Origin: an uncultured virus (IMG/VR IMGVR_UViG_3300047496_000236)
Lineage: Duplodnaviria > Heunggongvirae > Uroviricota > Caudoviricetes
Length of the DNA: 20,000 bases
Reading direction: 5' to 3' (one strand)
Virus record (IMG/VR): IMGVR_UViG_3300047496_000236
The notes under the pieces are model-generated. The model was given only the letters and a program-made list of their open reading frames with translations, did not search any database and was not told where the DNA came from. Of this stretch, positions 1 to 15,147 are shown one piece after another. A program made the position numbers and the translations under genes. The first letter of the stretch is position 1, and each line of letters begins with the position of its first letter.

Positions 1-1080
1 GGCGAGGCAGGTGAACTGGTAACCCCTGGATCTGAAGTTCGCGAGATAGCTAGGCCAGTCATTAGCCCACGGCAGGGTGGAGGCCTCCTCGAGGTTCTTC
101 TCGGAGACCAGGCGGGTCCCGATGTCGTAGGACTCCGCGCAGCACTCCATCATCCACTTCGCGAATTCGGTATCCCTCTTCTTGAGGAACTCGAACCACT
201 TCACCTTGTTGCGGCAGTGCATCGGGAAGATGCACTGGGGGGCATGGTGCCCCTCGAAGTAGTTCCGGCGTTCGGGGTGCCCGTGGAGCCAGTAGCCGTG
301 CTCCGTATCGATGCCCTTGTCGCACTTAGGACAGACGAGCCCGTGGAGGCCAATAGCGCTCTCGAGGTCGGCGCCTCGCTTCATCACGGAGGTGTAGCCG
401 CACCCCTTGCACTTGATGGCCCACTCCGCCATCGAGGAGTCCTTCCAGAGGTACTCCACGGTGTTCGAAAGCGACAAGGGGGTCCCCGCGTACTGCTCGA
501 GACCCCAGTCCGAGGCCGACATGGATTCCCGCATGACCCCCAGGAATTCCTTGTTGATGCCCTGGACTTCGTCGACCACGAAGCGGTCCGCGTTGATACC
601 ACGGGTGCGATCCGCATCGGAGAACGCGTATGAGAAGAACATGGTGGAGTTGTTGTGAGGCATCGTCTTCTGGAGAACGGAGTCCCGGCCTCGGAAGGTG
701 CGCTCTGCCACCATTTCTCTCAGGATGCAGTTGTTGATCGCGGGCTTCACATACAGGCTCGAGAAGCGCTGGATCTGCTCCTTCAGGGGCGTCACGAAGA
801 GGGTGTTGAAGTCAGAGATCGCAATGGACAACGCGACGCCCTGGTGGGCCTGGCTCAAGCTCTTACCGGTTTGGCGGGCACACTTCCAGAGGGACCGCTT
901 CGGGGGATCCAGTCGGAACATGGGCCGCATGGGCTCGTGCCCCGGGCTCAGGCTGTAGGGCTCCCGCTTGAACTTGAACAGGACAGGCAGCAAAGGCACC
1001 AGTGTCTTTGCGCCGCTTCGCTGGAAGGCGTCCAAGTAACGGTCGACCTCGGCAAGCTGGGCCGCATAGGAACCCGACAT
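1..1080 (-). CDS. terL: Terminase large subunit, gpA-like (N-terminal ATPase part; 3' end beyond window edge)
   Basis: Manual translation from ATG 1080 (in-frame ATG also at 1089) is open to base 1: MSGSYAAQLAEVDRY... Walker A KCARQTGKS, Walker B RGINADRFVVDEVQ, coupling motif YAGTP, then CKGC...CPKC zinc-type pair typical of lambda gpA-like terminases. Not in ORF track because no stop lies in the window. Confidence 0.9.
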   Translation of the reverse strand, partial: MSGSYAAQLAEVDRYLDAFQRSGAKTLVPLLPVLFKFKREPYSLSPGHEPMRPMFRLDPPKRSLWKCARQTGKSLSQAHQGVALSIAISDFNTLFVTPLKEQIQRFSSLYVKPAINNCILREMVAERTFRGRDSVLQKTMPHNNSTMFFSYAFSDADRTRGINADRFVVDEVQGINKEFLGVMRESMSASDWGLEQYAGTPLSLSNTVEYLWKDSSMAEWAIKCKGCGYTSVMKRGADLESAIGLHGLVCPKCDKGIDTEHGYWLHGHPERRNYFEGHHAPQCIFPMHCRNKVKWFEFLKKRDTEFAKWMMECCAESYDIGTRLVSEKNLEEASTLPWANDWPSYLANFRSRGYQFTCLA

Positions 1081-1130
1081 AGCAACCATGAGGACCACTA
1101 TGAAGGCCTCTGGGAACCCCGCAACATTCC

Positions 1131-1241: not shown

Positions 1242-2375
1242 CTACGCGGTGGCCAGGGCCTCCTCGTTGCTGACTTCGTCGGGCTTTTCAGCCGGAGTGG
1301 TCAGACTGTTGGCCTCGGCGGCCTGGGCCTTGCGACCCCGCTTCCCCTTGTGCTTGTTCTTCTTGCTGATCTTCGCCCCGGGGGTCAGGTCGACCGGGGG
1401 GAGCTCGATCTGGCTCTCCGTGGGGTCCACGTCGGCCGCCCCGAAGGCCGCCACCGGGGTCTCCACGGAAGCCGCCACCGGGGTCTCCGCGGGGGTCTCG
1501 GGGGTCACGGTCTCGACCTTGGGGGTCTCGATCGCTTTCCCCGAGAACCGGGCGGCGAGCCGGGCGCTCGCCTCGCCGTAGGACACCCAGGCCCCGAAGG
1601 CCTGGATGCTGGCGAGGTTCACGGGCTGCCAGCTGATTCCGTAGGTGGTGGCGTCCACGACCACCATTTCGGGGTACAGCTTGTGCACGAGATCCTTCGG
1701 GATCCGGGATTCCGGATCGCCGCCCGCCGCGAGGATGAGATCCTCATCGGAGGTATCCAGGCTGAGGCCGAGGGCCTCGGCGGCGACCGCGAGATCGGAG
1801 CCCGGACGGATCTTGCCGTTCTTGAGGCGGCCTTCCAGCAGCTCCGGGATCGCGTACTTCGTCACGACCTTCCCGCGGACTTTGGTCGCGATGGCGACCT
1901 GCTCCGGGGACACGTAGTACGGCACCTCGAAGTCCTGGAGCTCGAGCTCGTGGGCCCCGTTCTTGCCCCAGTGGCCCGCCGCGAAGCGCTCGAGGGCCTT
2001 GCGGCCCCCCTGGATGACGAGGTTCTCCTCGTCGGTGGCGATGAGCTCATTGCGGCAGATCGAGGCCCGGACGGTCCGCGCCACGGATCCCCCGAAGCGG
2101 AAGGGATCCGCCAGGGCGGCTTCCCGGGTCAAGGGGAAGCCGCCTTGGTTGATGCGCCCCTCGCTGTTGAGGATGCCCACTTCGGCGGTGTTCAGGGTGA
2201 AGCCGCGCGCCGTGGCGTCGTAGGCCACGACCTCGAGTTTGATGTTGGCCTTGAGGTGGGAGGACCCCTTCGGCTTCCAGAGCATCGGCATGGGTTCCCG
2301 GGCCTCGTGGAGGGTCCGCACCATGGCGATGGTGGCCAGGATGGCGGGGATGGCGCGGTTGAGGTTGTTGTTCAT
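1242..2375 (-). CDS. Hypothetical protein (377 aa) with ETP-rich low-complexity and basic C-terminal tail
   Basis: ATG 2375 (MNNNLNRAIP...) preceded by AAGGA. Strong GC3 codon bias. The longer 2624 start runs through hairpin/intergenic sequence. Ends before a terminator. Confidence 0.8.
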   Translation of the reverse strand: MNNNLNRAIPAILATIAMVRTLHEAREPMPMLWKPKGSSHLKANIKLEVVAYDATARGFTLNTAEVGILNSEGRINQGGFPLTREAALADPFRFGGSVARTVRASICRNELIATDEENLVIQGGRKALERFAAGHWGKNGAHELELQDFEVPYYVSPEQVAIATKVRGKVVTKYAIPELLEGRLKNGKIRPGSDLAVAAEALGLSLDTSDEDLILAAGGDPESRIPKDLVHKLYPEMVVVDATTYGISWQPVNLASIQAFGAWVSYGEASARLAARFSGKAIETPKVETVTPETPAETPVAASVETPVAAFGAADVDPTESQIELPPVDLTPGAKISKKNKHKGKRGRKAQAAEANSLTTPAEKPDEVSNEEALATA

Positions 2376-2477
2376 GGAGGATTCCTTGGTGTCTTGTGGT
2401 GAGATCCCGGGGTCGACACGCCCCCGAGATCTTTTGAGGACCTGAAACCTGAAGGCCTGAAATCTGAACTGGGATCT

Positions 2478-2493
2478 TTCTCCGCGCGGAGAA
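2478..2493. promoter_or_regulatory. 16-bp perfect palindrome TTCTCCGCGCGGAGAA (operator-like)
   Basis: Perfect palindrome in intergenic DNA. Identical 19-mer TCTTTCTCCGCGCGGAGAA at 2475-2493 and 11438-11456. Confidence 0.55.
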
Positions 2494-2645
2494 TTACCCC
2501 ACCCGGACCCAGAACCAGTTCCTGGGGTTCTTTTCTTCCGGGTTCTTCTTCTCCCACCGGCCCTTCGGGGGCTTCGTGCCGGTGTGAGTCCTACCGATGA
2601 CGGGGACCTTATCCCTGCGACCATCGGTAGGCCTCGAAGCCTTCA

Positions 2646-3186: not shown

Positions 3187-3519
3187 TTACGCACTCACTG
3201 TGTCTTCGATATCAGGACGGCGGTGGTACTGCCACCACTCGGAGCCGTCGTATTCCCCGCGGGTGGCCCAGGTGCCATCCTGGAACCAGATCACCCCGAA
3301 GAGGTGCTGGGTACCGTAGCCGCTGTCGTACTTGACGTTGAGGCTCTTGTAGGCCGCGTCGACCTCGGCCTCAGTGAAGCCCGGCTTGAGCTTCACCTTG
3401 ATCTGGCCTCCCTCGAAACCGGGCTCCCAGCTGTCGACGGTGTGCAGATCGATCACGAGGGCCTCGATCGGGCCCTTGTCCTTGATGAAATCCATGAGTT
3501 CAATCAACGCGTTGGCCAC
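3187..3519 (-). CDS. Conserved phage hypothetical protein (YDSGYG...GTW..RGEYDGSEWW type)
   Basis: GTG start with AAGGAGG SD. The aromatic motif YDSGYGTQHLFGVIWFQDGTWATRGEYDGSEWW resembles a widespread small phage protein of unknown function (recognised from memory). Confidence 0.85.
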   Translation of the reverse strand: MANALIELMDFIKDKGPIEALVIDLHTVDSWEPGFEGGQIKVKLKPGFTEAEVDAAYKSLNVKYDSGYGTQHLFGVIWFQDGTWATRGEYDGSEWWQYHRRPDIEDTVSA

Positions 3520-4130: not shown

Positions 4131-4234
4131 AAATGAGTAATTGAAATAACTGCCCCGTCGGGCGTGTTATTTAGCCCCCACCAAAGTGGGAGCCGACCTG
4201 CCCGGAGCCTTGCGGCATGGGGTCAGATCTGTCC

Positions 4235-4303
4235 GATAGCAAAAGAAAAGGCAGCACCCATCCGCGCTCCCGGGGGTTCTCCCCGAGAGTCGCAGATGGG
4301 TAC
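4235..4303 (-). terminator. ~21-bp hairpin + U-tract + GCTATC module
   Basis: Minus strand GTACCCATCTGCGACTCTCGGGG-AGAAC-CCCCGGGAGCGCGGATGGGTGC then CTTTTCTTTTGCTATC; same apical loop as the 1131-1200 module. Confidence 0.75.
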
Positions 4304-4925
4304 GGTCTTACTTCATTCAGAGGCCTGGTTAGGGCGGTCTGAATCCTGCGCAGCTTTCGCTACACAGGCGGTGCCCCGGAACCCCGGACCTCCTTACGGA
4401 GGCCCTGGGTGTGGGAGCGACCAGTTGTTGGTACGGAGCCCCCTCGGATGGAAGGGCCCCGATGGAGAATCGCAAATCTACCCTGGTGTGAATCGCCTTC
4501 ACTAAACCCGTACTAGCCGATGCGGAGCCACATCCATTTGTGGCAATCCTTCTCTTCGGGGTTCAAGTGTCGCCAGCGCCCCTTCGGGCAGCGGCGACCG
4601 GTGAATGTGGATCCGATACGATAGCTAGCCATGATGATCCCTCGCTACAGTTGTCGACTGCGCGTTAATGGGTGCTACAGGATGTCTGGGAATGACGCCG
4701 CTGCTTGATGGTGCAGTCCGTGCTAGAGCCCGGGGAAACCATGCCCTGGCCCTGTGAGGAGCGACCTCTGCCAGAGACCGGAATGACTCCTGTGAAACTG
4801 ACCAGTCCATCCTCGGGGATTCCGGCATCTCTACTGCGCCGGAAACCCAAGTGCCAGGAGAACCCCATAGGGGAGCCCTGGCGGTCCTGGTGACCAACCT
4901 GATCTTGGCTAGGCGGGGGGTCGGC
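4235..4925 (-). ncRNA. Candidate structured non-coding RNA (class unknown)
   Basis: No convincing ORF. Minus-strand GNRA-capped stems at 4345-4368 (GAAA) and 4381-4410 (GTAA), long-range helix 4523-4615 enclosing hairpin 4569-4598, G-U pairs that work on the minus strand, ends in a terminator. Confidence 0.45.
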
Positions 4926-4928
4926 CCG

Positions 4929-5366
4929 CTAGCCCAAGTAGAACATTCCAATCGCACGGGCCACAGGCGCCCGCCGCCGCTCCTTTCGGATAACGGCGAT
5001 ATATTCCATGATGACGAACCCCAGCTTCTCGTGGACGAGAAGGGTGGTGCCGGCCCCTTCGGGATCATGGAGCGCGCGAACCTCAGGGGAACCCCCGGCG
5101 AGGAGCTGGAGCTCCTCGTCAGCGATGGCCCTGAATCCACTCCTGGTCTGCGCGTATGCGTCGATAGCCACCCAGGACTCGTACAGCTCCTTCCTGACGA
5201 AGTTGCAGGCGAGCCTGAAAGTTCCGATCGCACGCACCCGTCTGAGCTCCGCAGCCGCCGCAGCGCTAGCGGGACCCCACTCGTCACCTTCGGCGCCCAG
5301 GGCTGCGAGGTAGGCCTGGTTAGCCTTGTACTCCAGACGCCGTCGAGCTGCTTCGGCGTCGTTCAT
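4929..5366 (-). CDS. Hypothetical protein (145 aa)
   Basis: ATG 5366 (MNDAEAARRRLEYK...) overlaps the upstream TGA (ATGA), purine-rich upstream sequence, protein-like composition. Confidence 0.65.
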   Translation of the reverse strand: MNDAEAARRRLEYKANQAYLAALGAEGDEWGPASAAAAAELRRVRAIGTFRLACNFVRKELYESWVAIDAYAQTRSGFRAIADEELQLLAGGSPEVRALHDPEGAGTTLLVHEKLGFVIMEYIAVIRKERRRAPVARAIGMFYLG

Positions 5367-5629
5367 GGGGCCCTCGCCTTCTTGGGCTTCGGGATCCCCT
5401 TGGCCCTCACGAGCCTGACGCCTCCGGGGCAGTCCCAGGCCTTTGCCAATTTCTTGGCTCCGGCCCGGGGCAGCCCCGGCACATAGCACCACCCGATGCG
5501 GTGCCTCGTCAGCAGTTCCCGCTCGTGCGGGCCCGCTGCTCTTGCTGGGATCACGGCCCAGCGCCGACGCCTGCTGCGGCGCCCTCTGTGCCCCCACTTA
5601 CGAGGGAATGTGGAGCGAGGCGTCTCCAT
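5363..5629 (-). CDS. Small basic hypothetical protein (up to 88 aa)
   Basis: Fills the gap between two genes; starts 4 nt after the upstream stop; its stop overlaps the next ATG. Start uncertain. Confidence 0.4.
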   Translation of the reverse strand: METPRSTFPRKWGHRGRRSRRRRWAVIPARAAGPHERELLTRHRIGWCYVPGLPRAGAKKLAKAWDCPGGVRLVRAKGIPKPKKARAP

Positions 5630-5633
5630 GGAC

Positions 5634-5879
5634 CTAGACCGTCGCCAGCTTGCGCTTCGACTTCACCTTGGCCCTGGCCCTGGCCTTGCCCACGGCCTTG
5701 CCGAGAGACTTCTCGACCTTGGCCGTCTTGCCGTAGGCCGCCTCCCTGATGCGATCCACCGCCATGCTGACGGCGTCGGGGTACCGCCGGGCCACCCACT
5801 GACCGCCATAGATGACGGCAGCGGTGGCGCCTGCGGCGCAGAGACCCAACGCAACGTTGGGCGAAATGACGATAGCCAT
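5634..5879 (-). CDS. Small membrane protein (81 aa), hydrophobic helix ending IYGG, Lys/Arg-rich tail
   Basis: ATG 5879 with GGGGAGG SD; MAIVISPNVALGLCAAGATAAVIYGG...KARARAKVKSKRKLATV. Confidence 0.75.
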   Translation of the reverse strand: MAIVISPNVALGLCAAGATAAVIYGGQWVARRYPDAVSMAVDRIREAAYGKTAKVEKSLGKAVGKARARAKVKSKRKLATV

Positions 5880-5961
5880 GTGAAACCTCCCCTTCGGGGT
5901 TCTGCCGCCGGAAGTGGCGGACATCCAGAGGCCAAGCTGGGGCCTTGGCCACTGGTGTCTG

Positions 5962-6402
5962 TCATTTCTTCAGAGATGCCCTCCTGGTGGGCACCTTCGT
6001 CACGACGTACTCGGAGCAGAACCTCCGATACTCGCAGGGCTCCCTTGCGGGATCCGCAATCCGGAGGGTGTCCCCCCGGACACCGTGAACCACGACGACA
6101 TGAGGGATGCCGAAGTAGTTCACAGAGGCCACCAGGATGAAACCGGCCCTCAGGAGGCGCCTGGCCTCCGGGAACAGGAGGCGCTGACCTGAGTACGTCG
6201 ACCGGAGCCCGTAGGTCCTCAGGGCCTTGGCGACCCTTTGCACCGAGGTGCCGTCCTTGGTGGCCCCAAGAAGCGGAATGAGATCCCGCGTCGGGACCCC
6301 CCATCCGAGGCAGGCATCGATGACCATCCCCGTGCACTCACATGCACAGGTCCAGTCCCGATACTGGAGACGCCTCCGGAGCGGATAGAGCACGGTGCTC
6401 AT
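5962..6402 (-). CDS. Stand-alone C39-like cysteine peptidase
   Basis: Q-x5-C motif (LQYRDWTC), GTS..L...LRTYGL segment, catalytic His in PHVVVVHG and IADP motif: the C39/papain-like pattern. No ABC-transporter domains. Confidence 0.8.
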   Translation of the reverse strand: MSTVLYPLRRRLQYRDWTCACECTGMVIDACLGWGVPTRDLIPLLGATKDGTSVQRVAKALRTYGLRSTYSGQRLLFPEARRLLRAGFILVASVNYFGIPHVVVVHGVRGDTLRIADPAREPCEYRRFCSEYVVTKVPTRRASLKK

Positions 6403-6461
6403 TTCAGCTCCGGCGGGATCTCTGGATGGAGCTCCTGCCTGGCGTTCGTCAGCTTCTGCAT
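6399..6461 (-). CDS. 20-aa peptide MQKLTNARQELHPEIPPELK coupled to the peptidase
   Basis: AAGGAGG SD 5 nt before ATG 6461; TGA overlaps the peptidase ATG (ATGA). Confidence 0.5.
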   Translation of the reverse strand: MQKLTNARQELHPEIPPELK

Positions 6462-6576
6462 TGAAGCCTCCTTCCGCCCCTCAGGGGCTTGGGGTGAAGC
6501 CGAACCCCGGGCTGCAGCCCCGGGGTTGGCGTAGATACGGGCCTTGGAGGCCTGCCGTCTCCGGCAGGCCTCCGAG

Positions 6577-7185
6577 TTATCCATGGGTCACCATGGACAA
6601 AAACGCCGACAGGGCCCACAGGGCCGTGACGGCCCCGGCGCCGCCGAAGAGCTTGGGCCCCAGGCCCTCACTCTTGCCGATGACAACGCGCTCCTGCGCC
6701 ATATCCAGGGGAAGCTCGAGCGCATGCCCGTGCTTCCCGCTGAGCGCCGTAAGCGCGGCGCTAGAGACCTCCTCGAAGCCCGTCCAGTCCGCTCCATGAA
6801 CGGACCCGATCCATTCCTCACCCCTGGAGACCCCGGCATAGGTCCCCCCGGAGAGCTCGTGGATCCGACGCGCCAAGAGCTCGACTCGTTCCTGCCGGAC
6901 GACCGCGCCGAAGAAGCGGTCGATCGCCTCCAGAGCAAAGAGCTTGCTATCGCCCCTGCTCCGCCCCGGGATAACGACGATCTCCCAGGGCCGCTTGCCC
7001 AGGAGGAGGGCGCTGAGGACCTCCACGGGGTCCTTGTGGGCATCGTGGTGAACCACGTTTCCCCATTTGCGCGTATCCAAGGTCGCCACCCTTCCCTTCC
7101 TCTCGTGCAAAAGGTTCCATTCGAAACCGCCTTCTTTCCAGGGCTTGATCCTGGTGAGGGTCCAAGGCCCATTGTTGGTCTGCAT
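6577..7185 (-). CDS. Hypothetical protein (202 aa) with C-terminal hydrophobic segment
   Basis: ATG 7185 (MQTNNGPW...) with GGGAGG SD; C-terminal LFGGAGAVTALWALSAFLSMV. Confidence 0.7.
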   Translation of the reverse strand: MQTNNGPWTLTRIKPWKEGGFEWNLLHERKGRVATLDTRKWGNVVHHDAHKDPVEVLSALLLGKRPWEIVVIPGRSRGDSKLFALEAIDRFFGAVVRQERVELLARRIHELSGGTYAGVSRGEEWIGSVHGADWTGFEEVSSAALTALSGKHGHALELPLDMAQERVVIGKSEGLGPKLFGGAGAVTALWALSAFLSMVTHG

Positions 7186-7509
7186 GTGTCCTCCCTGCCT
7201 TGTAGGCATATGGGGTAAACCCGCCTGAGACGCAGACCTCAAGCGAGCGGGGAATTCCGGATACCATGCCTCCGGTGGGGCATTGCGGCGATCTCGTTCC
7301 GCATCGCTCAGCTGTACTGCGCTAAGCCAGGGAACGAGTCCTCGTTTCCAGGGCGCCTTGATTGAGGTTGAGCGCGCTCCTTTCGGAGCCCTAGCCCTCC
7401 TCGCATTGCGCAGCGAATCGCGACCTGTTATTTACCCGGACAGGTTCCGGGAAGCCTAGTAGGCACACGAATCCTCCCTGCCCCTGTGGGGCATCCTGGG
7501 GTGAAGAAG

Positions 7510-7695
7510 CTAGACAGCCCTCTCAACCTGGCCCCACTTCACTCGCCACTCCAGAACGGTCCAGACCCCGTTCTGATGAAGGAGGCGACTGGGCAGCCAC
7601 TTGCCGTTCTCCAGGATTCCCTGGATCTCACGGCTGCGGCCGAGGGTGCGTTCGCACCGTGAAATGAGCTCCTCCATCTGACGCACTGAGCGCAT
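7510..7695 (-). CDS. Small hypothetical protein (61 aa)
   Basis: GGGAGG SD plus CTTCA-ATG leader identical to that at 6461. Confidence 0.6.
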   Translation of the reverse strand: MRSVRQMEELISRCERTLGRSREIQGILENGKWLPSRLLHQNGVWTVLEWRVKWGQVERAV

Positions 7696-7809
7696 TGAAG
7701 CCTCCCTGCCCCGTGGGGCACCTGGGGAAAAGGAAGCGGGGACTCGATGACCTCCCGCGGTAGCCCCCCTTTCTTCGGTTCAGGGGCCGGCAGCTCTGGG
7801 TACTGCATC

Positions 7810-8340
7810 CCTAAATCAGACCTCCCTAGGAGGCGTACGAACCCATAGGCTCGCCGGGCTCAGGTCAGCCGGAACCCTCTTTATGCCCACAGCCAGGTGT
7901 GGGCCCCGCACCTCATCTGGGCGGGCGGCAGAGTACTGGCAGGCTTTCCCGCTGTGGCGGTGGCCTCAAATGGATCCCGAAAGATCCCATGTCCGCATTC
8001 CAAGGATTACGGTAAACCAAACCCCACAGGGCTCGCCTTTGCTAGCCCCAGGAACCCCATAGGCTTTGGGTTCCGTACGCGGTCACAGTCCGGCCGCGAG
8101 CGCTGAACACCCTGCAGGGGTTCAGACACCTGGGGTATACCCAGGGACCGGGGGATGGCCCCCCGTTGTATTCAGGATCCTGCAGGACCCCTACTGACTG
8201 CGGCGGCGTCAGCCCTCCCCCTGCCCTGGGGTCGTATAGCCAGACACAACAGCGCTACAGCGCGGTTCGTCCTTCCAGGGGCGTACCGGTTTCCCGGTAC
8301 CTAAGAGATCCTTCGCGCTAGTTATAGTACGAAGGTCCTC
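7810..8340 (-). ncRNA. Candidate ~530-nt structured RNA / long leader (class unknown)
   Basis: No credible ORF. Begins directly after an AT-rich promoter-like element; chain of at least 8 hairpins, including GTACCGG-GAAA-CCGGTAC (8283-8300). Confidence 0.45.
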
Positions 8341-8373
8341 AAGTAGTAATACGCGAAACCGGGTCTTTATTTA
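8341..8373 (-). promoter_or_regulatory. Putative promoter TAAATAA-N15-TATTACT
   Basis: AT-rich island in GC-rich DNA right after the GNAT stop; TAAATAA recurs at 4167-4173, 7428-7434 and 12520-12526. Confidence 0.5.
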
Positions 8374-8397
8374 CCCCCCGGGGACCCCCGGGGTCCC

Positions 8398-8886
8398 TCA
8401 ATCACGCCACATCAGGACCCCATCTTCGGCAGGGCATCCTAGGGGGTGAAAGAAGCCCTGGACGACCCCCCGGGGGACGAATCCCAGCTTCTGCCAGATC
8501 CGCATGGCGCGGCTCCACTTCGGGTTCACGAGGCCTATAGCCGGGGGGGCCCCGGGCCCCCCTAGGAGGGCTCCTACGAGGCCCCGGCCAACCCCTGGAT
8601 ACCCCGGCATAGCCGCCACTGATGTGACATACAGGAGACCCCCGCGGGGCGCCCTCATGAGGTCGATCTCGGGCTTCCCGATGTCGTATATCCGCCAGAT
8701 CTCCAGGGCCGTTGCGTAGCCCTGAACAACCCCATCGATCTCCCCCACGACGAAGGTCTCCGGGGCATACCAGAGCTGGCGCCAGAACGGGAGCGCGTTG
8801 GGAGCCGCGATGCCAAGGGCAAAGGACGCCGTCTCGATCTCGAGGACGCGCTCGATGTCAGCGGAGACCGCCTGCCGGATGATCAC
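8398..8886 (-). CDS. GNAT (RimI-like) acetyltransferase
   Basis: N-terminal IRQAVSADIERVLEIETASF, motif A YVTSVAAMPGYPGVGRGLV, N...AMRIWQKLGF, C-terminal EDGVLM; GTG start overlaps the upstream TGA. Confidence 0.85.
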   Translation of the reverse strand: MIIRQAVSADIERVLEIETASFALGIAAPNALPFWRQLWYAPETFVVGEIDGVVQGYATALEIWRIYDIGKPEIDLMRAPRGGLLYVTSVAAMPGYPGVGRGLVGALLGGPGAPPAIGLVNPKWSRAMRIWQKLGFVPRGVVQGFFHPLGCPAEDGVLMWRD

Positions 8887-11423
8887 TGCTGCTGATCGCC
8901 AGCGAGGCCCCTGGCGGCTCCATAGCCGCCGAGGCCGACCCCGCCGGCTCCGAGGGCCTTGATGCTGGCGAGGAGGTGGGTATCGCGGCCCTGCATCTCG
9001 GACTGCAGGTTGTGATTCGTGAGCGTGCTATTGGCAAAGAAATCGGGGACCCACTTCGGGGTCGGATACAGAAGCCCGGAATGGCTGTTCGGATTCGCCT
9101 CGAAGATGATGGGTTTGCCACCCTTCCGGAAGCCGACATCGAAGGCGCCGCTGAGCTGCGAGTTCCGCTTGGCGAGCTGGGGTTCAAGGTGATCCCGGAG
9201 GGCCTGCTCAGCCCTGCGGGCCCCGGGATCCAGTCCGAGTTGGCCCAGGTAGCCCTGAATGGTCTTGTGCCGGGCCTCGGCCCCGGGGATCACGCGGCCA
9301 TTGACCATGTGGACCCTGTACTCGCTGGCGAGACCCCAAGGCGGCCTCTCGAGATCCACGCGGGGCTGGACGAAGCCCAGGGTAGGGTTCCTGAGGTAGC
9401 TCTGGAGCCTCCAGGCCTGCGCGTAGTCCGGGTTCTCTTTAAGGGCTGAGATCCATTCCTCGGGGTCATCCTTGAGGGCATGGACATCCCGGGGAGTCAT
9501 AGAGGTCCCCGGGATCTTCTCGCCCTTGGCGTAGCTGAAGTGGGGCAGGATGTCGTCCAGGTTGCTCTGGTCGTTGAAGAGGGTCCCGGCGCTCTGGAAG
9601 TCCCGGCGCCCCTTCATGATCCATTGGGGTGGCAGCTTGTTCAGGCGCTCCTCGAGCCAGGGGCGCAGGGCGTCCCCCTTGGGCACGGGACCCCCGAGGA
9701 CCTTGCTGAGAGGTGTTACCTCAGGAACCAGGCCAGGGACCAGCTTGCGGAGGCTCTGGAGTTCCTTGAGTTTGTCGTCGACGCCGAAGAACTTGAGATC
9801 CCCGGCGGTAGGCCCGATCCCGAGACGACCCCCTGGGTTCCTGTCCGCCCTGAAGTTGACCATGCCTCGGGGAGCCTTCTCTCCGTTGGGGCCGACGTGC
9901 TTGGTGCCGTAGGTCAGGTACGCCAAGAGATCCCGCATGACGCCCGGCTTCTGCTTCGCAAGCTCATCGAAGTCCTCCTGGGGCACATGCCGGAAGAGGC
10001 CCTTCTGACGCACGAGCTCAGTCATCTCGGGGCTCAGGATGCCTCCACGACCCCGGCGCGCGATGGCGTACGCGAGGGCCGCCGGAATCCCGGCTGCCGC
10101 GGCGTAGCCAGAGGCCGGCAGGGCCTTCTTCTTGTGCGGGGGTCCCGTGGGTATCAGGGACGCCGTCTTGTCGCCCTGGAGCTCCCTGGCGGCCCCGTAG
10201 GCCCCGGCCCCTGCAGCGGCAGCCCCGGTGCCCTTGAGGCCCGCCATGAGCCAGGTATCACGCCCCTGGATGGCGCCCTGAAGGCTGTGGTTGCTGAAGG
10301 CGGCCCTGCCAATGTCCATGGGGTTCCAGCTCGGGTTGGGGTAGAGGTGACCCGAATAACTATTCGGGTTCGCCTCAAAAGCGGTGGCCTTCCCTGAGGG
10401 ATCCAGCCCGACATCAAAGCCGCCGCTGAGGCTCGAACCCCTGGCAGCCAATGCGGGTTCCAGGTGCTCCCGGAGGGCCTGCTCTGCTTTGTGGGCCCCC
10501 GGATCCAGACCGAGCATGCCGAGGAGATGCCGCACCTTGTTGTAGCGTGACGTGGTTCCGGGAACCACTTTGCCATTGAGGACGTGGACGCGGTACTCCT
10601 GCTTCCCCAGGAAAGGGTTCGTGGCGATTTGGGTCCTGGTCTGAGCGAAACCGGAACCCGGGTTCTTGAGGTAGCCCTTGAGACGCCAGGCCATGGCGTA
10701 CTCCGGGTTCTGCTTCAGCGCCGCGGACCACTCATTGGCTCTGCTGGGGGACCTCCGGATCTCCTCGAGCTGATTCGGGGTCATGTCGATCCCGGGGATC
10801 ATGGCATCCGAGGGATGGTTCATGTACGGCAGGACCTTCTTGAGGTCGGCCTGATCCGTGAGGAGACCCCCGGCGGAATCGAAGTCCTTCTTGCCCTTCA
10901 GGATCCACTTCGGCCCCAGCACCTTGAGATTCTTCCGCAACCAGGGCTCCAGTGCGGGCCCCGTGGGCGGGGTCCCCTTGAGGACGCCGGAGAGTCTGGT
11001 GAACTTGGGGGTGATACCGGGGGCCAGCTTGTGGAGGAGGGCGGTCTCCTTGAGCTTGTTGCCCTCGCGGAAATCCCGGATGTCGGCCTCATTGGGTCCG
11101 ACCCCGAGGGGGCCCCCAGGCTTCTTCAGCGGATTGATGTCCACCATACCGGCGCCCCTGGGGGCTTCCGTTCCGACGTGCTTGGTGCCATAGGTCAGAT
11201 ACGCCAGGAGGGAGCGCAGCGGCGACTTGTCCAGGGCGGCGGCGTCGGTCTCGTCGACGTGACGGAAGACCCCTTTGGCCCTGGCGGCCTCCATGAGCTC
11301 GGGGCCCAGGAGACCCCCGCGGCCCCTGCGGGCGATCAGCATGGCAATGGCAGCGGGGATGCCAGCGGCTGCGGCGTAACCTGAGGCCGGCAGCCTCTTC
11401 TTGGGCTTGTGCTCTTGGACCAT
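8883..11423 (-). CDS. Tandem double ATP-grasp (RimK-like) protein, 846 aa
   Basis: Two ~420-aa homologous units, each with WI(L/M)KG..DF.SAG, F(A/V)Q.R, EYRVH..NG.V and FDVG....G....FEANPNS.SG (metal-binding E-x-N), each flanked by Gly/Ala-rich hydrophobic segments. Confidence 0.8.
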   Translation of the reverse strand: MVQEHKPKKRLPASGYAAAAGIPAAIAMLIARRGRGGLLGPELMEAARAKGVFRHVDETDAAALDKSPLRSLLAYLTYGTKHVGTEAPRGAGMVDINPLKKPGGPLGVGPNEADIRDFREGNKLKETALLHKLAPGITPKFTRLSGVLKGTPPTGPALEPWLRKNLKVLGPKWILKGKKDFDSAGGLLTDQADLKKVLPYMNHPSDAMIPGIDMTPNQLEEIRRSPSRANEWSAALKQNPEYAMAWRLKGYLKNPGSGFAQTRTQIATNPFLGKQEYRVHVLNGKVVPGTTSRYNKVRHLLGMLGLDPGAHKAEQALREHLEPALAARGSSLSGGFDVGLDPSGKATAFEANPNSYSGHLYPNPSWNPMDIGRAAFSNHSLQGAIQGRDTWLMAGLKGTGAAAAGAGAYGAARELQGDKTASLIPTGPPHKKKALPASGYAAAAGIPAALAYAIARRGRGGILSPEMTELVRQKGLFRHVPQEDFDELAKQKPGVMRDLLAYLTYGTKHVGPNGEKAPRGMVNFRADRNPGGRLGIGPTAGDLKFFGVDDKLKELQSLRKLVPGLVPEVTPLSKVLGGPVPKGDALRPWLEERLNKLPPQWIMKGRRDFQSAGTLFNDQSNLDDILPHFSYAKGEKIPGTSMTPRDVHALKDDPEEWISALKENPDYAQAWRLQSYLRNPTLGFVQPRVDLERPPWGLASEYRVHMVNGRVIPGAEARHKTIQGYLGQLGLDPGARRAEQALRDHLEPQLAKRNSQLSGAFDVGFRKGGKPIIFEANPNSHSGLLYPTPKWVPDFFANSTLTNHNLQSEMQGRDTHLLASIKALGAGGVGLGGYGAARGLAGDQQQ

Positions 11424-11438: not shown

Positions 11439-11458
11439 CTTTCTCCGCGCGGAGAAAG
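11439..11458. promoter_or_regulatory. 20-bp perfect palindrome CTTTCTCCGCGCGGAGAAAG
   Basis: Fills most of the 36-bp gap between the 340-aa gene and the ATP-grasp gene; core repeated at 2478-2493. Confidence 0.55.
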
Positions 11459-11459
11459 G

Positions 11460-12482
11460 TTAGGCGGTCTGCAGGCTCAGCATCTCGATGAGGACATCCG
11501 CATCGGGGCGAGGCCACGTCTCGAGGATCTCGGAGGCCCGCTCGAAGCCGACACCCTTGACCTCGTTGTAGAGCGCGGGATCCACAGCGGCGACCTTGGC
11601 CCAATCCAAGTCGGAGAGCCGGATCGTCTTGCCGTTCATGAGGTGGACGAGGCCGTCTTCTGAGGCCGTCTTCACGTTGAGCACGGTGTCGTGGTACAGG
11701 GCCTCCTCGGGGAGCTCCAGGGAGACCCCGTAGGCCAGCTTGAGGCCCTGTTCGTCATCCAGAGCATCGAACGCCTTCATGGCGTACTCATCCCAGTCCG
11801 GGAAGTCGGAGGTGCTCCTGAGGATCGCGGCGACCTTGATGCAGCTCGGAGCCAGCGCGACATCGCGGCGGCGGCGCTCCATGAGCATGACATCGGCGGC
11901 CTCGTAGGACGGCAGCCCGAAGCCGGCGGCCTTCGTGATGTAGTCGAAGGCGACCGGGGTGACCCCGACTTCAGCGTTGCCACCGGAGCCCATGATCTCT
12001 TCGAAGAGGGTCCCTGCCGCCTTCTGGCGGGCTGCCCAGGGCAGCTTGTGACGCGACTTCCAGAAGGTCTCCGAAGCCTCCTTGAGGGACGTCGTTGATG
12101 CAAAGGGGAACAGGCGGTACTGGCGTCCACCGAGAGCGATGTCCAAGGCGTACTTCACACCCCGGGGTTCCGTGGCGTCCATGATCTCGGCGGCCATCTT
12201 GTTCACGGTATCGATGACACCGAAGATCTTGGCGGCCCCGAAGATCCGGGAGGTCACGGCGGCAGCGATCTTGGGGGTTCCAAAGGCTTCCGCGGCGCTC
12301 AGGATGCAGTCCTCCGGCGAGCAGATCGGGAACCTGCGGGCGGCCTGATCAGCGAAGGAGGAGGAAGGAAGACCGTCGTGGTTTTGAGACGTTTCCGCCG
12401 CGATCTTCTCAAGATCCACGGCTTTCACGGCTCTCTTGACGAGGTCGAATGCCCTGATGTCTTGGGTAGCGGTGGTGTTCAC
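11460..12482 (-). CDS. Hypothetical, probable virion/head-associated protein with multiple K-x-A-[A/S] motifs (340 aa)
   Basis: GTG start with AGGA upstream; KIAA (twice), KMAA, KEAS, KVAA (twice), KTAS. The virion role is inference. Confidence 0.7.
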   Translation of the reverse strand: MNTTATQDIRAFDLVKRAVKAVDLEKIAAETSQNHDGLPSSSFADQAARRFPICSPEDCILSAAEAFGTPKIAAAVTSRIFGAAKIFGVIDTVNKMAAEIMDATEPRGVKYALDIALGGRQYRLFPFASTTSLKEASETFWKSRHKLPWAARQKAAGTLFEEIMGSGGNAEVGVTPVAFDYITKAAGFGLPSYEAADVMLMERRRRDVALAPSCIKVAAILRSTSDFPDWDEYAMKAFDALDDEQGLKLAYGVSLELPEEALYHDTVLNVKTASEDGLVHLMNGKTIRLSDLDWAKVAAVDPALYNEVKGVGFERASEILETWPRPDADVLIEMLSLQTA

Positions 12483-12567
12483 TTGGTTTCCTATATCACG
12501 AACTGTAAGGGCGTCCAGTTTATTTACTAGCCCTGAGTCCTAAGATACGTTAAGAAGCCTACACCCT

Positions 12568-15147
12568 ATGTTGACGTCCCCTTTGAACAAAATGACACCC
12601 CAGGACCTCCTGGGAGCCCTGAACATCGGCGCCGGCAAGACCTACCCCAGCGTGGCGAAGTGTCCCCTTTGCCTGGTCCCGGGGGCCCTCGAGATCACCC
12701 TCGCCGTTGGGGGCTCCGCCGTATACGCCTGCAGAACCCAGACCTGCGGCTTCGCCGGGGATGGTCTGGAGCTCTTCGCCAGGGCTAAGAACTGCGGGCT
12801 TCAGGAAGCCGCCCACATCCTCCTCGCTGGAGGCATCCTTCCCGGGGACCCCGATTTCCATGTCCACCTCCAGGACTACCTCGGGGCCTACAAGGCGCAC
12901 CAGGTCATCGATGACTGGTGGGCCGAGCGCAACCAGCGTCTCCAGACCTCGAGCCATGCCGCGGGGATCCTGCAGGCCCTGGGGTGCTGGATAAGCCCGG
13001 CCCTTACGCTGGACCCCCAGGGCCTCGGGAAGCATCTCGGGATCTGCACCGGGCGTGAGCTCCAGACCCTCATGTCGGGCCATGAGCACCTCATGTACAC
13101 CCAGGGGTACCGCCAGTACCTCATCACCCCGCTTTACGCGGATCCCCGGACCATCACGGGCTTCGCGTACTTCACGGAGACCGACTTCGGCTGCGCCCAC
13201 CTGGACAGCCACAGCAAGGTCTTCGGCTTCGGGTTCCTCTCGACCACCGGCTTCAGGTCCGATGTCGTAGTCCTGGTGAATACCCCAGCTGCGGCCCTGG
13301 AGTACCTCGCGAACTCCTGGGGTGTTCCGGGAGCCCCTGGGATCCTCTATGTGCACCCCAGGGCCTCCGCCTGGGAAAGCGTGCTGGCCCGTAGGCGCCT
13401 CTTCCTGAACTTCAATGACTCCATCGAGACCTACAAGCAGACCCTCAGGGACTCCTCGGCGGTGGTCGTCTCCAAGAAAGCGATCCAGACCAGACACTAC
13501 GGACCCCTGAGCAGTCCCAAGGCTCGCCTGGAATACTTCCTCGAGATCGGGACTACGGCTCACGCCGCTGCAGGGGCCTACCTCCTCGGGATCTCCTTTG
13601 CGGAGGCCAGGGTGGCTGCCCAGAGCATGGATCTCCGCGGGGCCGATATGGCCCGTATCAGCTCAGCGGTTCCAGAAGCCTCGAGACCCCAAATGGAGGA
13701 GATCTTCGCTGACCTCCAAGAGAAGCTCTCGGTGAGCTACCGTGGGGATACCATCTCGATCTACAATGGCTCCTGGAGGTCCGAGAAGCATGGCGAGATC
13801 TCGAATGCGGTCTTCCTCGTCGATGAGGTCATCTGCGATACCCACAACAATCGGACCGTCGCCAAGGGTGTAGTGCTCCAAGGCAAGCAGACGTACCCCT
13901 TCCAAGACGACCTCGTGCGGCTCCAGACCAAGGTGGTCGACTTCTTGCAGGAGGTCCTCCGGAAGAACCATGGTGACATCCTGAATGTGGCCCCGGGCTG
14001 GACCAAGGGGAACAAGATGTACCACCTCAGCACCCAGTTCAGGGCGCCCCAGACGACCTACAGCGCCGTTGGAACCGGCTGGGCCAACGACAACAAGCGT
14101 TTGGTGCTGCCCCGGATCACCCTGGAAAACGGGGTCGTCGTGACCTCCACGAAGCTCCTGGATGGCTCCGGCCAGGGCCTAGGGATACCGCCTGATCTCC
14201 ACACCCTCGATCTGGATCCCATCCTGGTACCCTCGGATGCCTCGGCCTCGTTTTGGGCCCTATGGGCTGCCCTGACGGCCAACGCGTGGGGTCCCCTGCA
14301 GCCCCATGGGCCCCAGGGCTACGGGATCGTTGAGGCCACGGGGACCGCCTTCGACGAGGTCTACCAAGGCATGATCGAATCCATTGGGCTCCAGCGGGTC
14401 ACCCTGAGCACTACCGACGCCGTCAGGACCACCAAGGCTACGGAGCAGAAGTCGATCCTGCCCCTCGTCATCGATGAGATGTGGTCGCATTCCAAGTTCT
14501 TCGCGGCGTACCAGCAAGACGGCCTCCGCAACGCCTTCGTGGGGATGTCGCCCACGACGTACCTCGCCACAAGCCTCTCCGGGGGATGGACTTATCTCAC
14601 CCCCAAGGGGGTCCCCGGGACCGGTGTAGACCTCAGACCGTACTGGGCCCTCCTACCCATGTTCTGGGCCTGGCTGCAGGTCAACCAGGTCCAGTGGGAG
14701 CGTACGAGGTCATCTCTGCTGCCTGGGATCCTCAGGAACGCCGTGGAGCCCTGGTTGAGATCCCTGGGATACGAGAAGCCCGTCTTCGCAGACAAAGCTG
14801 TGGGACTCATCTCTGTGGACACCACGGCGGCCCAGGTCGCCTGGGGCTACCGCTTCATGGGGTTCCTCATTGAGGCCACCAAGAAGGGTATCCTCCGCAT
14901 CGGGAAGCCAGATGATCCCAAGTTCGCTGAGAACCTCACGGTCGACGAGGCCGGCAAGGTCGCCTTTGTCTCGAAGCAGCGTCTCGGGGCCCTGTTCCAG
15001 GAACTCGGCATTGAGCCCATCAGGCAGGAAGACATCGCGACCAACATGGACGCCGTGGGTTGCCTTGTGGGGCAGCGGTATCGTAATACCGTTGGAATCG
15101 TCATGGATCTCGAACGCTACAACCTCTGCTGGGCCATGAGGGCATAA
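12568..15147 (+). CDS. Primase/helicase-like protein with N-terminal zinc-binding domain (859 aa), probably degenerate
   Basis: CPLC...YAC...CGFAGDGLELFARAKNCGLQEAAHIL matches the DnaG/CHC2-type zinc finger pattern; LPLVIDE Walker-B-like motif in the C-terminal half; no clear GKT/S Walker A or TOPRIM EG/DxD. Confidence 0.65.
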   Translation: MLTSPLNKMTPQDLLGALNIGAGKTYPSVAKCPLCLVPGALEITLAVGGSAVYACRTQTCGFAGDGLELFARAKNCGLQEAAHILLAGGILPGDPDFHVHLQDYLGAYKAHQVIDDWWAERNQRLQTSSHAAGILQALGCWISPALTLDPQGLGKHLGICTGRELQTLMSGHEHLMYTQGYRQYLITPLYADPRTITGFAYFTETDFGCAHLDSHSKVFGFGFLSTTGFRSDVVVLVNTPAAALEYLANSWGVPGAPGILYVHPRASAWESVLARRRLFLNFNDSIETYKQTLRDSSAVVVSKKAIQTRHYGPLSSPKARLEYFLEIGTTAHAAAGAYLLGISFAEARVAAQSMDLRGADMARISSAVPEASRPQMEEIFADLQEKLSVSYRGDTISIYNGSWRSEKHGEISNAVFLVDEVICDTHNNRTVAKGVVLQGKQTYPFQDDLVRLQTKVVDFLQEVLRKNHGDILNVAPGWTKGNKMYHLSTQFRAPQTTYSAVGTGWANDNKRLVLPRITLENGVVVTSTKLLDGSGQGLGIPPDLHTLDLDPILVPSDASASFWALWAALTANAWGPLQPHGPQGYGIVEATGTAFDEVYQGMIESIGLQRVTLSTTDAVRTTKATEQKSILPLVIDEMWSHSKFFAAYQQDGLRNAFVGMSPTTYLATSLSGGWTYLTPKGVPGTGVDLRPYWALLPMFWAWLQVNQVQWERTRSSLLPGILRNAVEPWLRSLGYEKPVFADKAVGLISVDTTAAQVAWGYRFMGFLIEATKKGILRIGKPDDPKFAENLTVDEAGKVAFVSKQRLGALFQELGIEPIRQEDIATNMDAVGCLVGQRYRNTVGIVMDLERYNLCWAMRA

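Follow-up and report, generated by a model that had tools for sequence, protein, structure and literature searches.

We analysed a 20,000-nt stretch of DNA (hereafter, the window) from an uncultured virus assigned to the Caudoviricetes (IMG/VR record IMGVR_UViG_3300047496_000236). Its central feature is an 846-amino-acid (aa) minus-strand protein, P0001, in which two paralogous ATP-grasp units are joined in a single chain. This gene probably belongs to an apparent operon of three, which starts with a 340-aa protein, P0066, continues with the ligase-like P0001 and ends with a predicted GNAT acyltransferase, P0002 (Table 1). The G+C content of the window is ~63% and coding frames could be read clearly from the GC content at each codon position; the open reading frames (ORFs) of P0001 and P0002 both have the pattern typical of real minus-strand genes.

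The two-unit organization of P0001 was evident. Residues 1-423 and 424-846 are identical at 223 of 421 positions (53%, E 1e-135), far past chance, which bears out the original prediction, made from the sequence by a model, that the ORF consists of two homologous units of ~420 aa. All motifs listed in that prediction were found in both units: QEYRVH and SEYRVH, GFDVG and AFDVG, FEANPN twice, an opening motif (HKPKKRLPASGYAAAAGIPAA in unit 1 and HKKKALPASGYAAAAGIPAA in unit 2) and a closing Gly/Ala-rich motif (AYGAARELQGD and GYGAARGLAGD). The junction sequence KTAS was likewise located as described, at residues 419-422 (K419-T-A-S, coded at 10169-10158). No in-frame ATG, GTG or TTG was found near this junction, therefore unit 2 lacks an initiation codon of its own. 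The same prediction read P0001 as a protease-processed polyprotein, which our results do not support: there is no sign of cleavage at KTAS, and the junction is the C-terminal tail of unit 1 joined to the N-terminal tail of unit 2. We take P0001 to be two paralogues joined covalently, not a polyprotein that requires cleavage. Judging from the nonsynonymous and synonymous divergence between the units (dN 0.44 and dS 0.91, NG86 method), the duplication is old and constraint still acts on both copies.

We modelled unit 1 with AlphaFold2 (AF2) from a family alignment of 34 rows, made up of both window units and 32 relatives. The model reached a per-residue confidence (pLDDT) of 90.1 and a predicted template-modelling score (pTM) of 0.85. 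From the N to the C terminus it contains a helix, the pre-ATP-grasp domain, the RAGNYA domain (carrying K176), the kinase-like domain (carrying E276-x-R278-x-H280, D337 and E350-x-N352) and a final pair of helices. A Foldseek search of the PDB returned 112 matches at E≤1e-3, with DdlB first and D-Ala-D-Ala ligases in all of the top ten places; all those listed were ATP-grasp proteins, including biotin carboxylases, TTL, LysX and Cdc123. The wide mode of VIA-align, which is independent of Foldseek, pointed in the same direction: the 50 rows listed were all ATP-grasp proteins, spanning residues 48-394, and were led by TTLL11 (Z 10.5), ITPK1 (9.1), a RimK-domain protein and AMdnB (8.8) and RimK (8.5), with Cdc123 at 6.6.

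The residues expected of an active ATP-grasp enzyme are kept throughout the family. E276, R278, D337, E350 and N352 were invariant in 34/34 rows, both window units included, and K176, Q261 and H280 were nearly so (K176 in at least 90% of rows). In the numbering of unit 2, the invariant residues are E278, R280, D339, E352 and N354, and K181 is nearly invariant. As given in the available text of PMC4431377, the catalytic template of the superfamily comprises a Lys close to where RAGNYA strand 2 ends, an Asp in kinase-like strand 4 and an ExN at the last strand. K176 (within model strand E173-177), D337 and E350-x-N352 supply this template in unit 1, and the same residues are kept in unit 2. The same text ascribes a conserved Arg to the clade containing most of the ATP-grasp ligases that form peptide or amide bonds. 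R278 of E-Y-R-V-H, within model strand E276-282, corresponds to this Arg and aligns to the R in 'DIRCLVV' of RimK. Because the conserved residues correspond to the published template, both units look catalytically competent. The earlier reading of each half as an ATP-grasp unit that keeps its motifs is thus upheld, by the model and its structural matches for unit 1 and by the invariant residues for both. A prediction of unit 1 and unit 2 as a complex gave 0.91, 0.01 and 0.01 in three runs; the median lay below the mark and the result was used neither way.

The only Pfam ATP-grasp families matched by P0001 and by the units of its relatives belong to the R2K clade (Cdc123 or R2K.1; R2K.2, PF18299; R2K.3, PF14243). 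P0001 did not reach the gathering scores of R2K_2 (E 3.1e-5, 24.3 bits against 26.2) or R2K_3 (E 1.7e-4, 22.2 bits against 26.3), unit 1 alone had no match to the R2K models at E≤0.01, and P0001 matched nothing in PHROGs or NCBIfam. Across the alignment members, at E≤0.01, R2K_3 was matched by 13/34 and R2K_2 by 9/34 (best 1.1e-8). The label 'RimK-type' given originally did not hold: no RimK model was matched in Pfam (E≤1) or NCBIfam (E≤0.1), and the family profile, when compared with E. coli RimK by hhalign, reached a probability of 51% (E 1.5e-4) over only 87 C-terminal columns. As far as sequence comparison can tell, the family is not RimK.

To define this family we ran an exhaustive HMMER search with unit 1 as the query against 1.84 billion representatives, which returned 64 proteins at E≤1e-3, the query included. 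The 63 relatives (best E 4.6e-25) make up a rare and, it seems, phage-associated family and are mostly single units of ~400-500 aa. No match was obtained by tblastn of phage records with P0001, P0049 and P0028. Profile scans of IMG/VR gave two contigs only, one with L001, L003 and L004 and the other with L006; a scan of JGI metagenomes gave L002 only, and scans of GTDB genomes gave none. Genomic context was read for three of these loci, L001, L002 and L006.

A second and a third case of pairing emerged from these searches. In L002, two paralogous genes (P0014 and P0007) stand next to each other, in the company of a polynucleotide-kinase-like gene and a methyltransferase and without a GNAT, while P0065 has two units in one chain; its junction shares no conserved motif with the KTAS junction. 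We built a tree of 35 rows, containing the window units, the L002 genes, the P0065 halves, the P0010 core and 28 full-length relatives, with fragments and multi-domain proteins excluded. Every tandem pair came out as sisters, with supports of 100/100, 100/98 and 100/99. The paired arrangement is seen, on this tree, three times (two fused, one as adjacent genes) as what appear to be lineage-specific sister copies. Such sister pairs result either from three independent duplications or from concerted evolution, and either way the presence of two non-identical units is a recurrent state.

The remaining loci hold single units in other settings. In L001, the unit is part of a phage polyvalent protein together with 2H-SAK, LigD_N (the LigD 3'-phosphoesterase), ATP-dependent DNA ligase and InPase domains, the latter matching PHROGs annotated as minor head, virion structural and DarB-like. 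No description of this combination of RNA/DNA-end repair with an amidoligase was found in the available parts of the literature. In L006, the holin directly after the relative matches phrog_2359 (1.8e-11), and collagen-like tail fibre genes follow a few kb downstream. Among the other relatives, P0049 and P0061 carry a fused N-terminal GNAT that scores over the Pfam cut-off, and P0051 contains an Amidoligase_2 domain. The GNAT of P0049 has no detectable similarity to P0002 (E 4.1), and because of this the two GNAT associations look independent.

Each unit opens with ~21 uncharged, Ala-rich residues and then RRGRGG, and ends with a Gly/Ala-rich helix; in unit 1, the N-terminal Ala-rich hydrophobic helix lies at ~residues 13-31. 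Both terminal segments are conserved in the family, are modelled as high-confidence helices and are an integral part of the module. In every one of 25 full-length units they are the most hydrophobic part, and their uncharged runs mostly measure ~15-30 residues. Their hydropathy is borderline, the Kyte-Doolittle mean reaching 1.6 in 5/25 N-terminal and 1/25 C-terminal segments. Membrane insertion by these helices is conceivable. We rejected them as firm transmembrane anchors, given the borderline hydropathy and the L001 unit, which sits mid-protein with its helices.

We next turn to the third gene. As originally predicted, the start of P0002 overlaps the stop of P0001: the GTG of CAGCAGTGATCATC shares the 4-nt GTGA with the TGA of the 846-aa ORF, and because of this overlap P0002 is probably translationally coupled to P0001. 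In the ESM Atlas, P0002 has a model of its own (pTM 0.85) which matches GNAT clusters with a template-modelling score (TM) of 0.87 over 160 residues and a feature score of 0.96. The clusters matched are 96-100% PF00583, and the ten best feature matches all belong to that family or its clan. A single-sequence AF2 model was unusable (pLDDT 31), thus the fold call rests on the Atlas model. The PDB sequence 4h89, a GNAT, was matched at E 0.34, and the segment PGVGRGLVGALL resembles the acetyl-CoA-binding motif A. P0002 had no similarity to the ORF following the L001 gene. On the Atlas model, the GNAT fold foreseen for the downstream ORF is accepted. Its description as 'RimI-like' had to be dropped, the likeness having no support past the generic fold: NCBIfam TIGR01575 scored 12.9 bits (E 0.089) against a cut-off of 86.4.

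P0066, the product of the first gene of the operon, had no match in Pfam, PHROG or NCBIfam, and phage hypothetical proteins form its nearest clusters in the ESM Atlas (score 0.91). A role as partner or as substrate is conceivable. Beyond it lies a divergent intergenic region (12483-12567). The perfect palindrome between P0066 and P0001 could form a regulatory hairpin or sequester the ribosome-binding site via its GGAG, and the GC-rich hairpin immediately 3' of the GNAT stop probably marks the end of the operon. Between 7400 and 12700, terminator-like sites numbered 7 against a mean of 2.8 in shuffles, this hairpin (which has no T-run) not being among them, and a promoter scan of the same interval returned no promoter-like site.

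Table 1. Features of the ATP-grasp operon, of the rest of the window and of three related loci.
Feature	Position	Strand	Remarks
P0001, 846-aa single-chain tandem ATP-grasp pair	8883..11423	-	translates without internal stop
Unit 1 of P0001, residues 1-423	10155..11423	-	domains described in the text
Unit 2 of P0001, residues 424-846	8886..10154	-	architecture and invariant residues as in unit 1
Junction K419-T-A-S	10158..10169	-	no extra linker (alignment to single-unit relatives)
P0002, 162-aa predicted GNAT-fold acyltransferase	8398..8886	-	GTGA overlap at 8883-8886
P0066, 340-aa first gene of the operon	11460..12482	-	codon-position GC pattern coding; 36 nt upstream of the 846-aa ORF
Perfect 20-nt palindrome CTTTCTCCGCGCGGAGAAAG	11439..11458	-	between P0066 stop and 846-aa ORF start
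GC-rich hairpin GGGACCC-CGG-GGGTCCC	8381..8397	-	immediately 3' of GNAT stop
C39-family peptidase domain, standalone, 146 aa	5962-6402	-	Pfam E 2.3e-6, above cut-off
96-aa ORF, membrane-type	5634-5924	-	one hydrophobic helix and basic tail; follows the C39 ORF
Large terminase (TerL), partial	1-1098	-	Pfam GpA_ATPase E 1.7e-8; phrog_675 E 5.2e-31
460-aa ORF	1242-2624	-	good coding signal; no Pfam/PHROG/NCBIfam match
859-aa ORF	12568-15147	+	good coding signal; no Pfam/PHROG/NCBIfam match
ORF of at least 936 aa	17188-19998	-	good coding signal; no Pfam/PHROG/NCBIfam match
L001, 146-kb viral contig	7676-11386		1236-aa phage polyvalent protein, unit at residues 592-1034
L002, 17.6-kb metagenome contig			two adjacent paralogous genes, 7 nt apart (P0014, P0007)
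L006, 204-kb viral contig, 40% GC	4134-9019		single unit between 863-aa KTSC-MazG protein and holin

The ~700 nt after the GNAT gene (7696-8397) contained no convincing ORF, no tRNA and no Rfam match. This region is GC-rich, holds many short inverted repeats and opens with the hairpin described above. It may serve as a regulatory region or an origin, or else encode an unknown RNA. Scans of the whole window for tRNAs and Rfam families returned nothing.

The operon is part of a run of minus-strand genes that extends from ~12482 down to position 1, where the final gene encodes a partial TerL. This protein has at most 34% identity to known phages, and its match to phrog_675 (5e-31) agrees with the phage-like setting that had been proposed. 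Pfam and PHROG searches identified no structural genes near the ligase operon, TerL itself lying ~8 kb downstream. The 859-aa ORF and the ORF of at least 936 aa had no match by tblastn against 50,697 phage records, and a megablast search with the whole window returned no match. By these comparisons the contig appears to be extremely novel: TerL aside, its large neighbouring ORFs have no match in the databases searched. A 110-aa ORF on the minus strand (3187-3519) matches phrog_3972, of unknown function (E 8e-21), and more weakly an excisionase PHROG. Because two ORFs, of 144 aa and 460 aa, separate it from TerL further downstream, it may encode a small terminase or a DNA-binding protein. The C39 ORF also matches the NCBIfam model of the NHLP bacteriocin export peptidase (E 3.2e-5), and with the 96-aa ORF it could form a lysis cassette or represent a leader peptidase.

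What might such an operon do? In the available text of PMC4431377 (Burroughs, Zhang & Aravind 2015), R2K.2 is found in caudate phages and R2K.3 in operons with GNATs and with a second ATP-grasp, and both are proposed to ligate peptides, followed by a second ligase or a GNAT cap, in phage-host conflict. Our system fits this predicted theme of ATP-grasp and GNAT peptide ligation. We therefore favour, with a probability of roughly 0.55, a phage three-gene operon in which a double ATP-grasp amide ligase and a GNAT build or attach a short tag and cap it, with a role in phage-host conflict; this tag-and-cap reading is in line with what has been predicted for R2K.2 and R2K.3 (PMC4431377; PMC7824862). 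Each unit would bind Mg-ATP via K176, D337 and E350-x-N352, all of them conserved residues, and would activate a carboxylate as an acyl-phosphate, which an amine would then attack to yield an amide or peptide bond, as suggested by the chemistry of the superfamily and the amide-clade Arg. Working side by side or in succession, the two units may assemble or attach a short tag, of amino acids or peptide, with a protein or small acceptor as its recipient, and the GNAT may then N-acylate, and so cap, the product or the same target. The system would probably serve host takeover or counter-defence, and two relatives do occur in a conflict setting, one within the L001 polyvalent protein and one next to the KTSC-MazG protein of L006. 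The ribosomal target, virion packaging and membrane association suggested in the original prediction drew no support from any result of the analysis, although one relative does form part of the L001 polyvalent protein.

Several observations weigh against this reading. The link between ATP-grasp and GNAT, which had been expected to recur in related phages, stood only in part: it is seen in the GNAT fusions of P0049 and P0061 and in the R2K.3-GNAT operons published (PMC4431377, available text), but a GNAT adjacent to the ligase was found in 0/3 related loci (L001, L002 and L006). The fusions themselves are present in only 2/43 relatives scanned with Pfam, and P0049 and P0061 are orthologues (37% identity), therefore they count as one event. 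P0002 itself did not reach the cut-off of Pfam Acetyltransf_1 (E 0.0036, 18.0 bits against 20.7), and a search for its sequence relatives returned only itself. The sister placement of the paired units can also come from gene conversion and not from independent duplication, and the phage assignment leans mainly on TerL. Moreover, the R2K protein known best, Cdc123, has been discussed in terms of assembly-factor function, and ligase chemistry is thus not guaranteed. Finally, the available parts of the literature yielded no demonstrated activity or substrate for this family, for R2K.2 or for R2K.3.

The structural matches could be taken more literally than we have done. Foldseek placed D-Ala-D-Ala ligases in its top ten PDB positions, the terminal segments are the most hydrophobic part of the 25 full-length units, a holin directly follows the relative in L006, and the C39-like peptidase and the 96-aa membrane-type protein lie 2-3 kb downstream of our operon. 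These points would suit a Ddl- or L-amino-acid-ligase-like pair which makes a short non-ribosomal peptide or changes a peptidoglycan precursor at the membrane, the GNAT providing the cap, maybe for lysis or superinfection exclusion. We regard this as unlikely, though worth keeping in view. The Foldseek TM scores were low (0.29-0.35) and VIA-align led with TTLL11, ITPK1 and a RimK-domain protein; the fold is not Ddl-specific. Few terminal segments reach a hydropathy of 1.6. The L001 unit, together with its helices, is placed inside a large multi-domain protein, to which obligatory membrane anchors are a poor fit. No biosynthetic partner genes were detected in the Pfam and NCBIfam scans. A bolder variant of protein tagging is more doubtful still: a phage-delivered or membrane-docked machine in which one unit initiates and the other extends an amino-acid chain on a host protein, much like the initiating and elongating TTLLs that act on tubulin, the GNAT caps it and the terminal helices dock or dimerise. 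The need for two non-identical units would then explain that the pair arose or was kept at least three times, and the machine would be a bacterial-virus counterpart of eukaryotic polyglutamylation or polyglycylation.

Two further explanations start from the neighbourhood of the unit, here or in relatives, and we consider both improbable. One is a graspetide-like (microviridin-type) pathway for a ribosomally synthesized and post-translationally modified peptide (RiPP), with two ATP-grasp macrocyclases that cross-link side chains of a precursor, the GNAT acetylating the new N-terminus and the C39-like peptidase removing the leader. Microviridin clusters include a GNAT. The best PDB sequence match of the family is the ATP-grasp ligase 5ig8_A, a weak one (E 0.048 with unit 1 as the query and 0.1 with the profile), the structural matches include the RiPP ATP-grasp ligases 7m4s (Z 8.8), 7mgv (8.3), 5ig9 (7.7) and 7drm (7.6), and the C39 domain lies ~2 kb downstream. 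In the available text of PMC8939145, some microviridin-like loci have two ATP-grasp genes and the commonest neighbours are C39-ABC transporters. However, there is no precursor-like ORF of ≤150 aa beside the ligase, whose neighbours are P0066 and the GNAT; none of the PDB sequence matches reaches significance, and many non-RiPP ATP-grasps have Z scores on a par. The C39 gene stands in another transcription unit, past the hairpin and the ~700 nt of non-coding DNA, has no ABC transporter with it, and precedes a gene for a small membrane-type protein, an order known from lysis cassettes; nor was any peptidase or precursor pattern seen at L001, L002 and L006. The other explanation, which merits as little credence, is that the 846-aa chain is packaged in the virion, cut at KTAS and both ligases injected with the DNA. 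The L001 relative is a domain of a polyvalent protein whose InPase matches virion-type PHROGs; PMC5512222 argues that proteins of this InPase-bearing kind probably enter the virion and that processing of polyvalent proteins can occur, and the L002 units are separate polypeptides. Against this, neither P0001 nor the operon encodes a peptidase domain, the junction has no conserved motif in common with that of P0065, and no structural genes are identified close to the operon, TerL lying ~8 kb downstream.

R2K-type ATP-grasp ligases have been predicted to be conflict effectors that place peptide tags on proteins (PMC4431377, in the text available), and the locus described here is a compact case, with two complete active sites per chain, a coupled acetyltransferase and a co-transcribed 340-aa candidate partner. 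We found no description of the family, or of the recurrent pairing of its units, in the available parts of the literature searched. This pairing of paralogous units looks like a design rule and suggests a division of labour between them. A target, if found, would give the first biochemical handle on the clade and reveal a new means by which phages alter host proteins or their own; should the product instead be a small capped peptide, a phage-borne non-ribosomal route would be added.

How, then, does the tagging operon that we favour compare with known systems? In gene content the window, where a C39-like peptidase lies near the GNAT and the paired ATP-grasp units, is similar to microviridin/graspetide clusters, with their two ATP-grasp ligases and C39-ABC transporter (PMC8939145) and their GNAT, but in the window the precursor and the ABC transporter are lacking, the similarity is not significant (E 0.05-0.1) and the genes lie in separate transcription units. 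Phage polyvalent proteins (Iyer et al. 2017, PMC5512222) include the L001 relative as one module, whereas P0001 consists of two copies of one domain only, with no peptidase and no typical polyvalent domains; in the available text of that study, ATP-grasp amidoligases appear only as RNA ligases. RimI, the S18-alanine N-acetyltransferase, shares the GNAT fold with P0002, whose score for the RimI equivalog is far below the cut-off. RimK, which in E. coli is the glutamate ligase of ribosomal protein S6, shares the ATP-grasp fold (4iwx, Z 8.5; RimK-domain protein 5i47, Z 8.8), and in the kinase-like half Q, E-x-R, D and ExN match; however, the units of P0001 have ~120 aa extra, including the terminal helices and a helical insert (~194-253). 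The top VIA-align match, TTLL11 (9hq4_E), was aligned over 236 residues with a root-mean-square deviation of 4.4, but at 11% identity and with a Z only ~1.5 over many other ATP-grasps. TTLLs, the tubulin tyrosine ligase-like polyglutamylases, are protein-tagging amino-acid ligases of eukaryotes, with microtubule-binding domains, which are absent from the window protein.

The nearest described group is R2K, and Cdc123 structures are indeed among the matches of unit 1 (4zgp in Foldseek; 4zgo, Z 6.6, in VIA-align). Our family differs in that it keeps a D/N-K-x-x-E where the helix following the pre-ATP-grasp domain begins; this motif looks like the linker lysine which classical ATP-grasps have between the pre-ATP-grasp and RAGNYA domains and which R2K members lack. 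K123 and E126 represent this motif in unit 1 (helix 123-133), and K128 and E131 are nearly invariant in alignment A2. By eye the motif is like 'DKLRS' of RimK, but the score of the local alignment to E. coli RimK was no better than that of shuffles, 97/200 and 60/200 of which reached it. A second K/R, which R2K enzymes conserve in the loop directly following the strand-2 lysine, occurs in the two window units as K-G-K-K and K-G-R-R but not family-wide, being substituted in many relatives (for example IKGTDE, LKSTGG and IKGVNE), and R2K.3 has ExGD where the window family has ExN. Conserved Ala-rich N-terminal and Gly/Ala-rich C-terminal helices are added, and the module recurs as tandem pairs. 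Because a K-x-x-E resembling the linker motif is kept, the second loop K/R is not conserved and the ExN replaces ExGD, we did not file the family as R2K; on these sequence features we treat it as an apparently undescribed family of ATP-grasp proteins that stands near R2K rather than within it.

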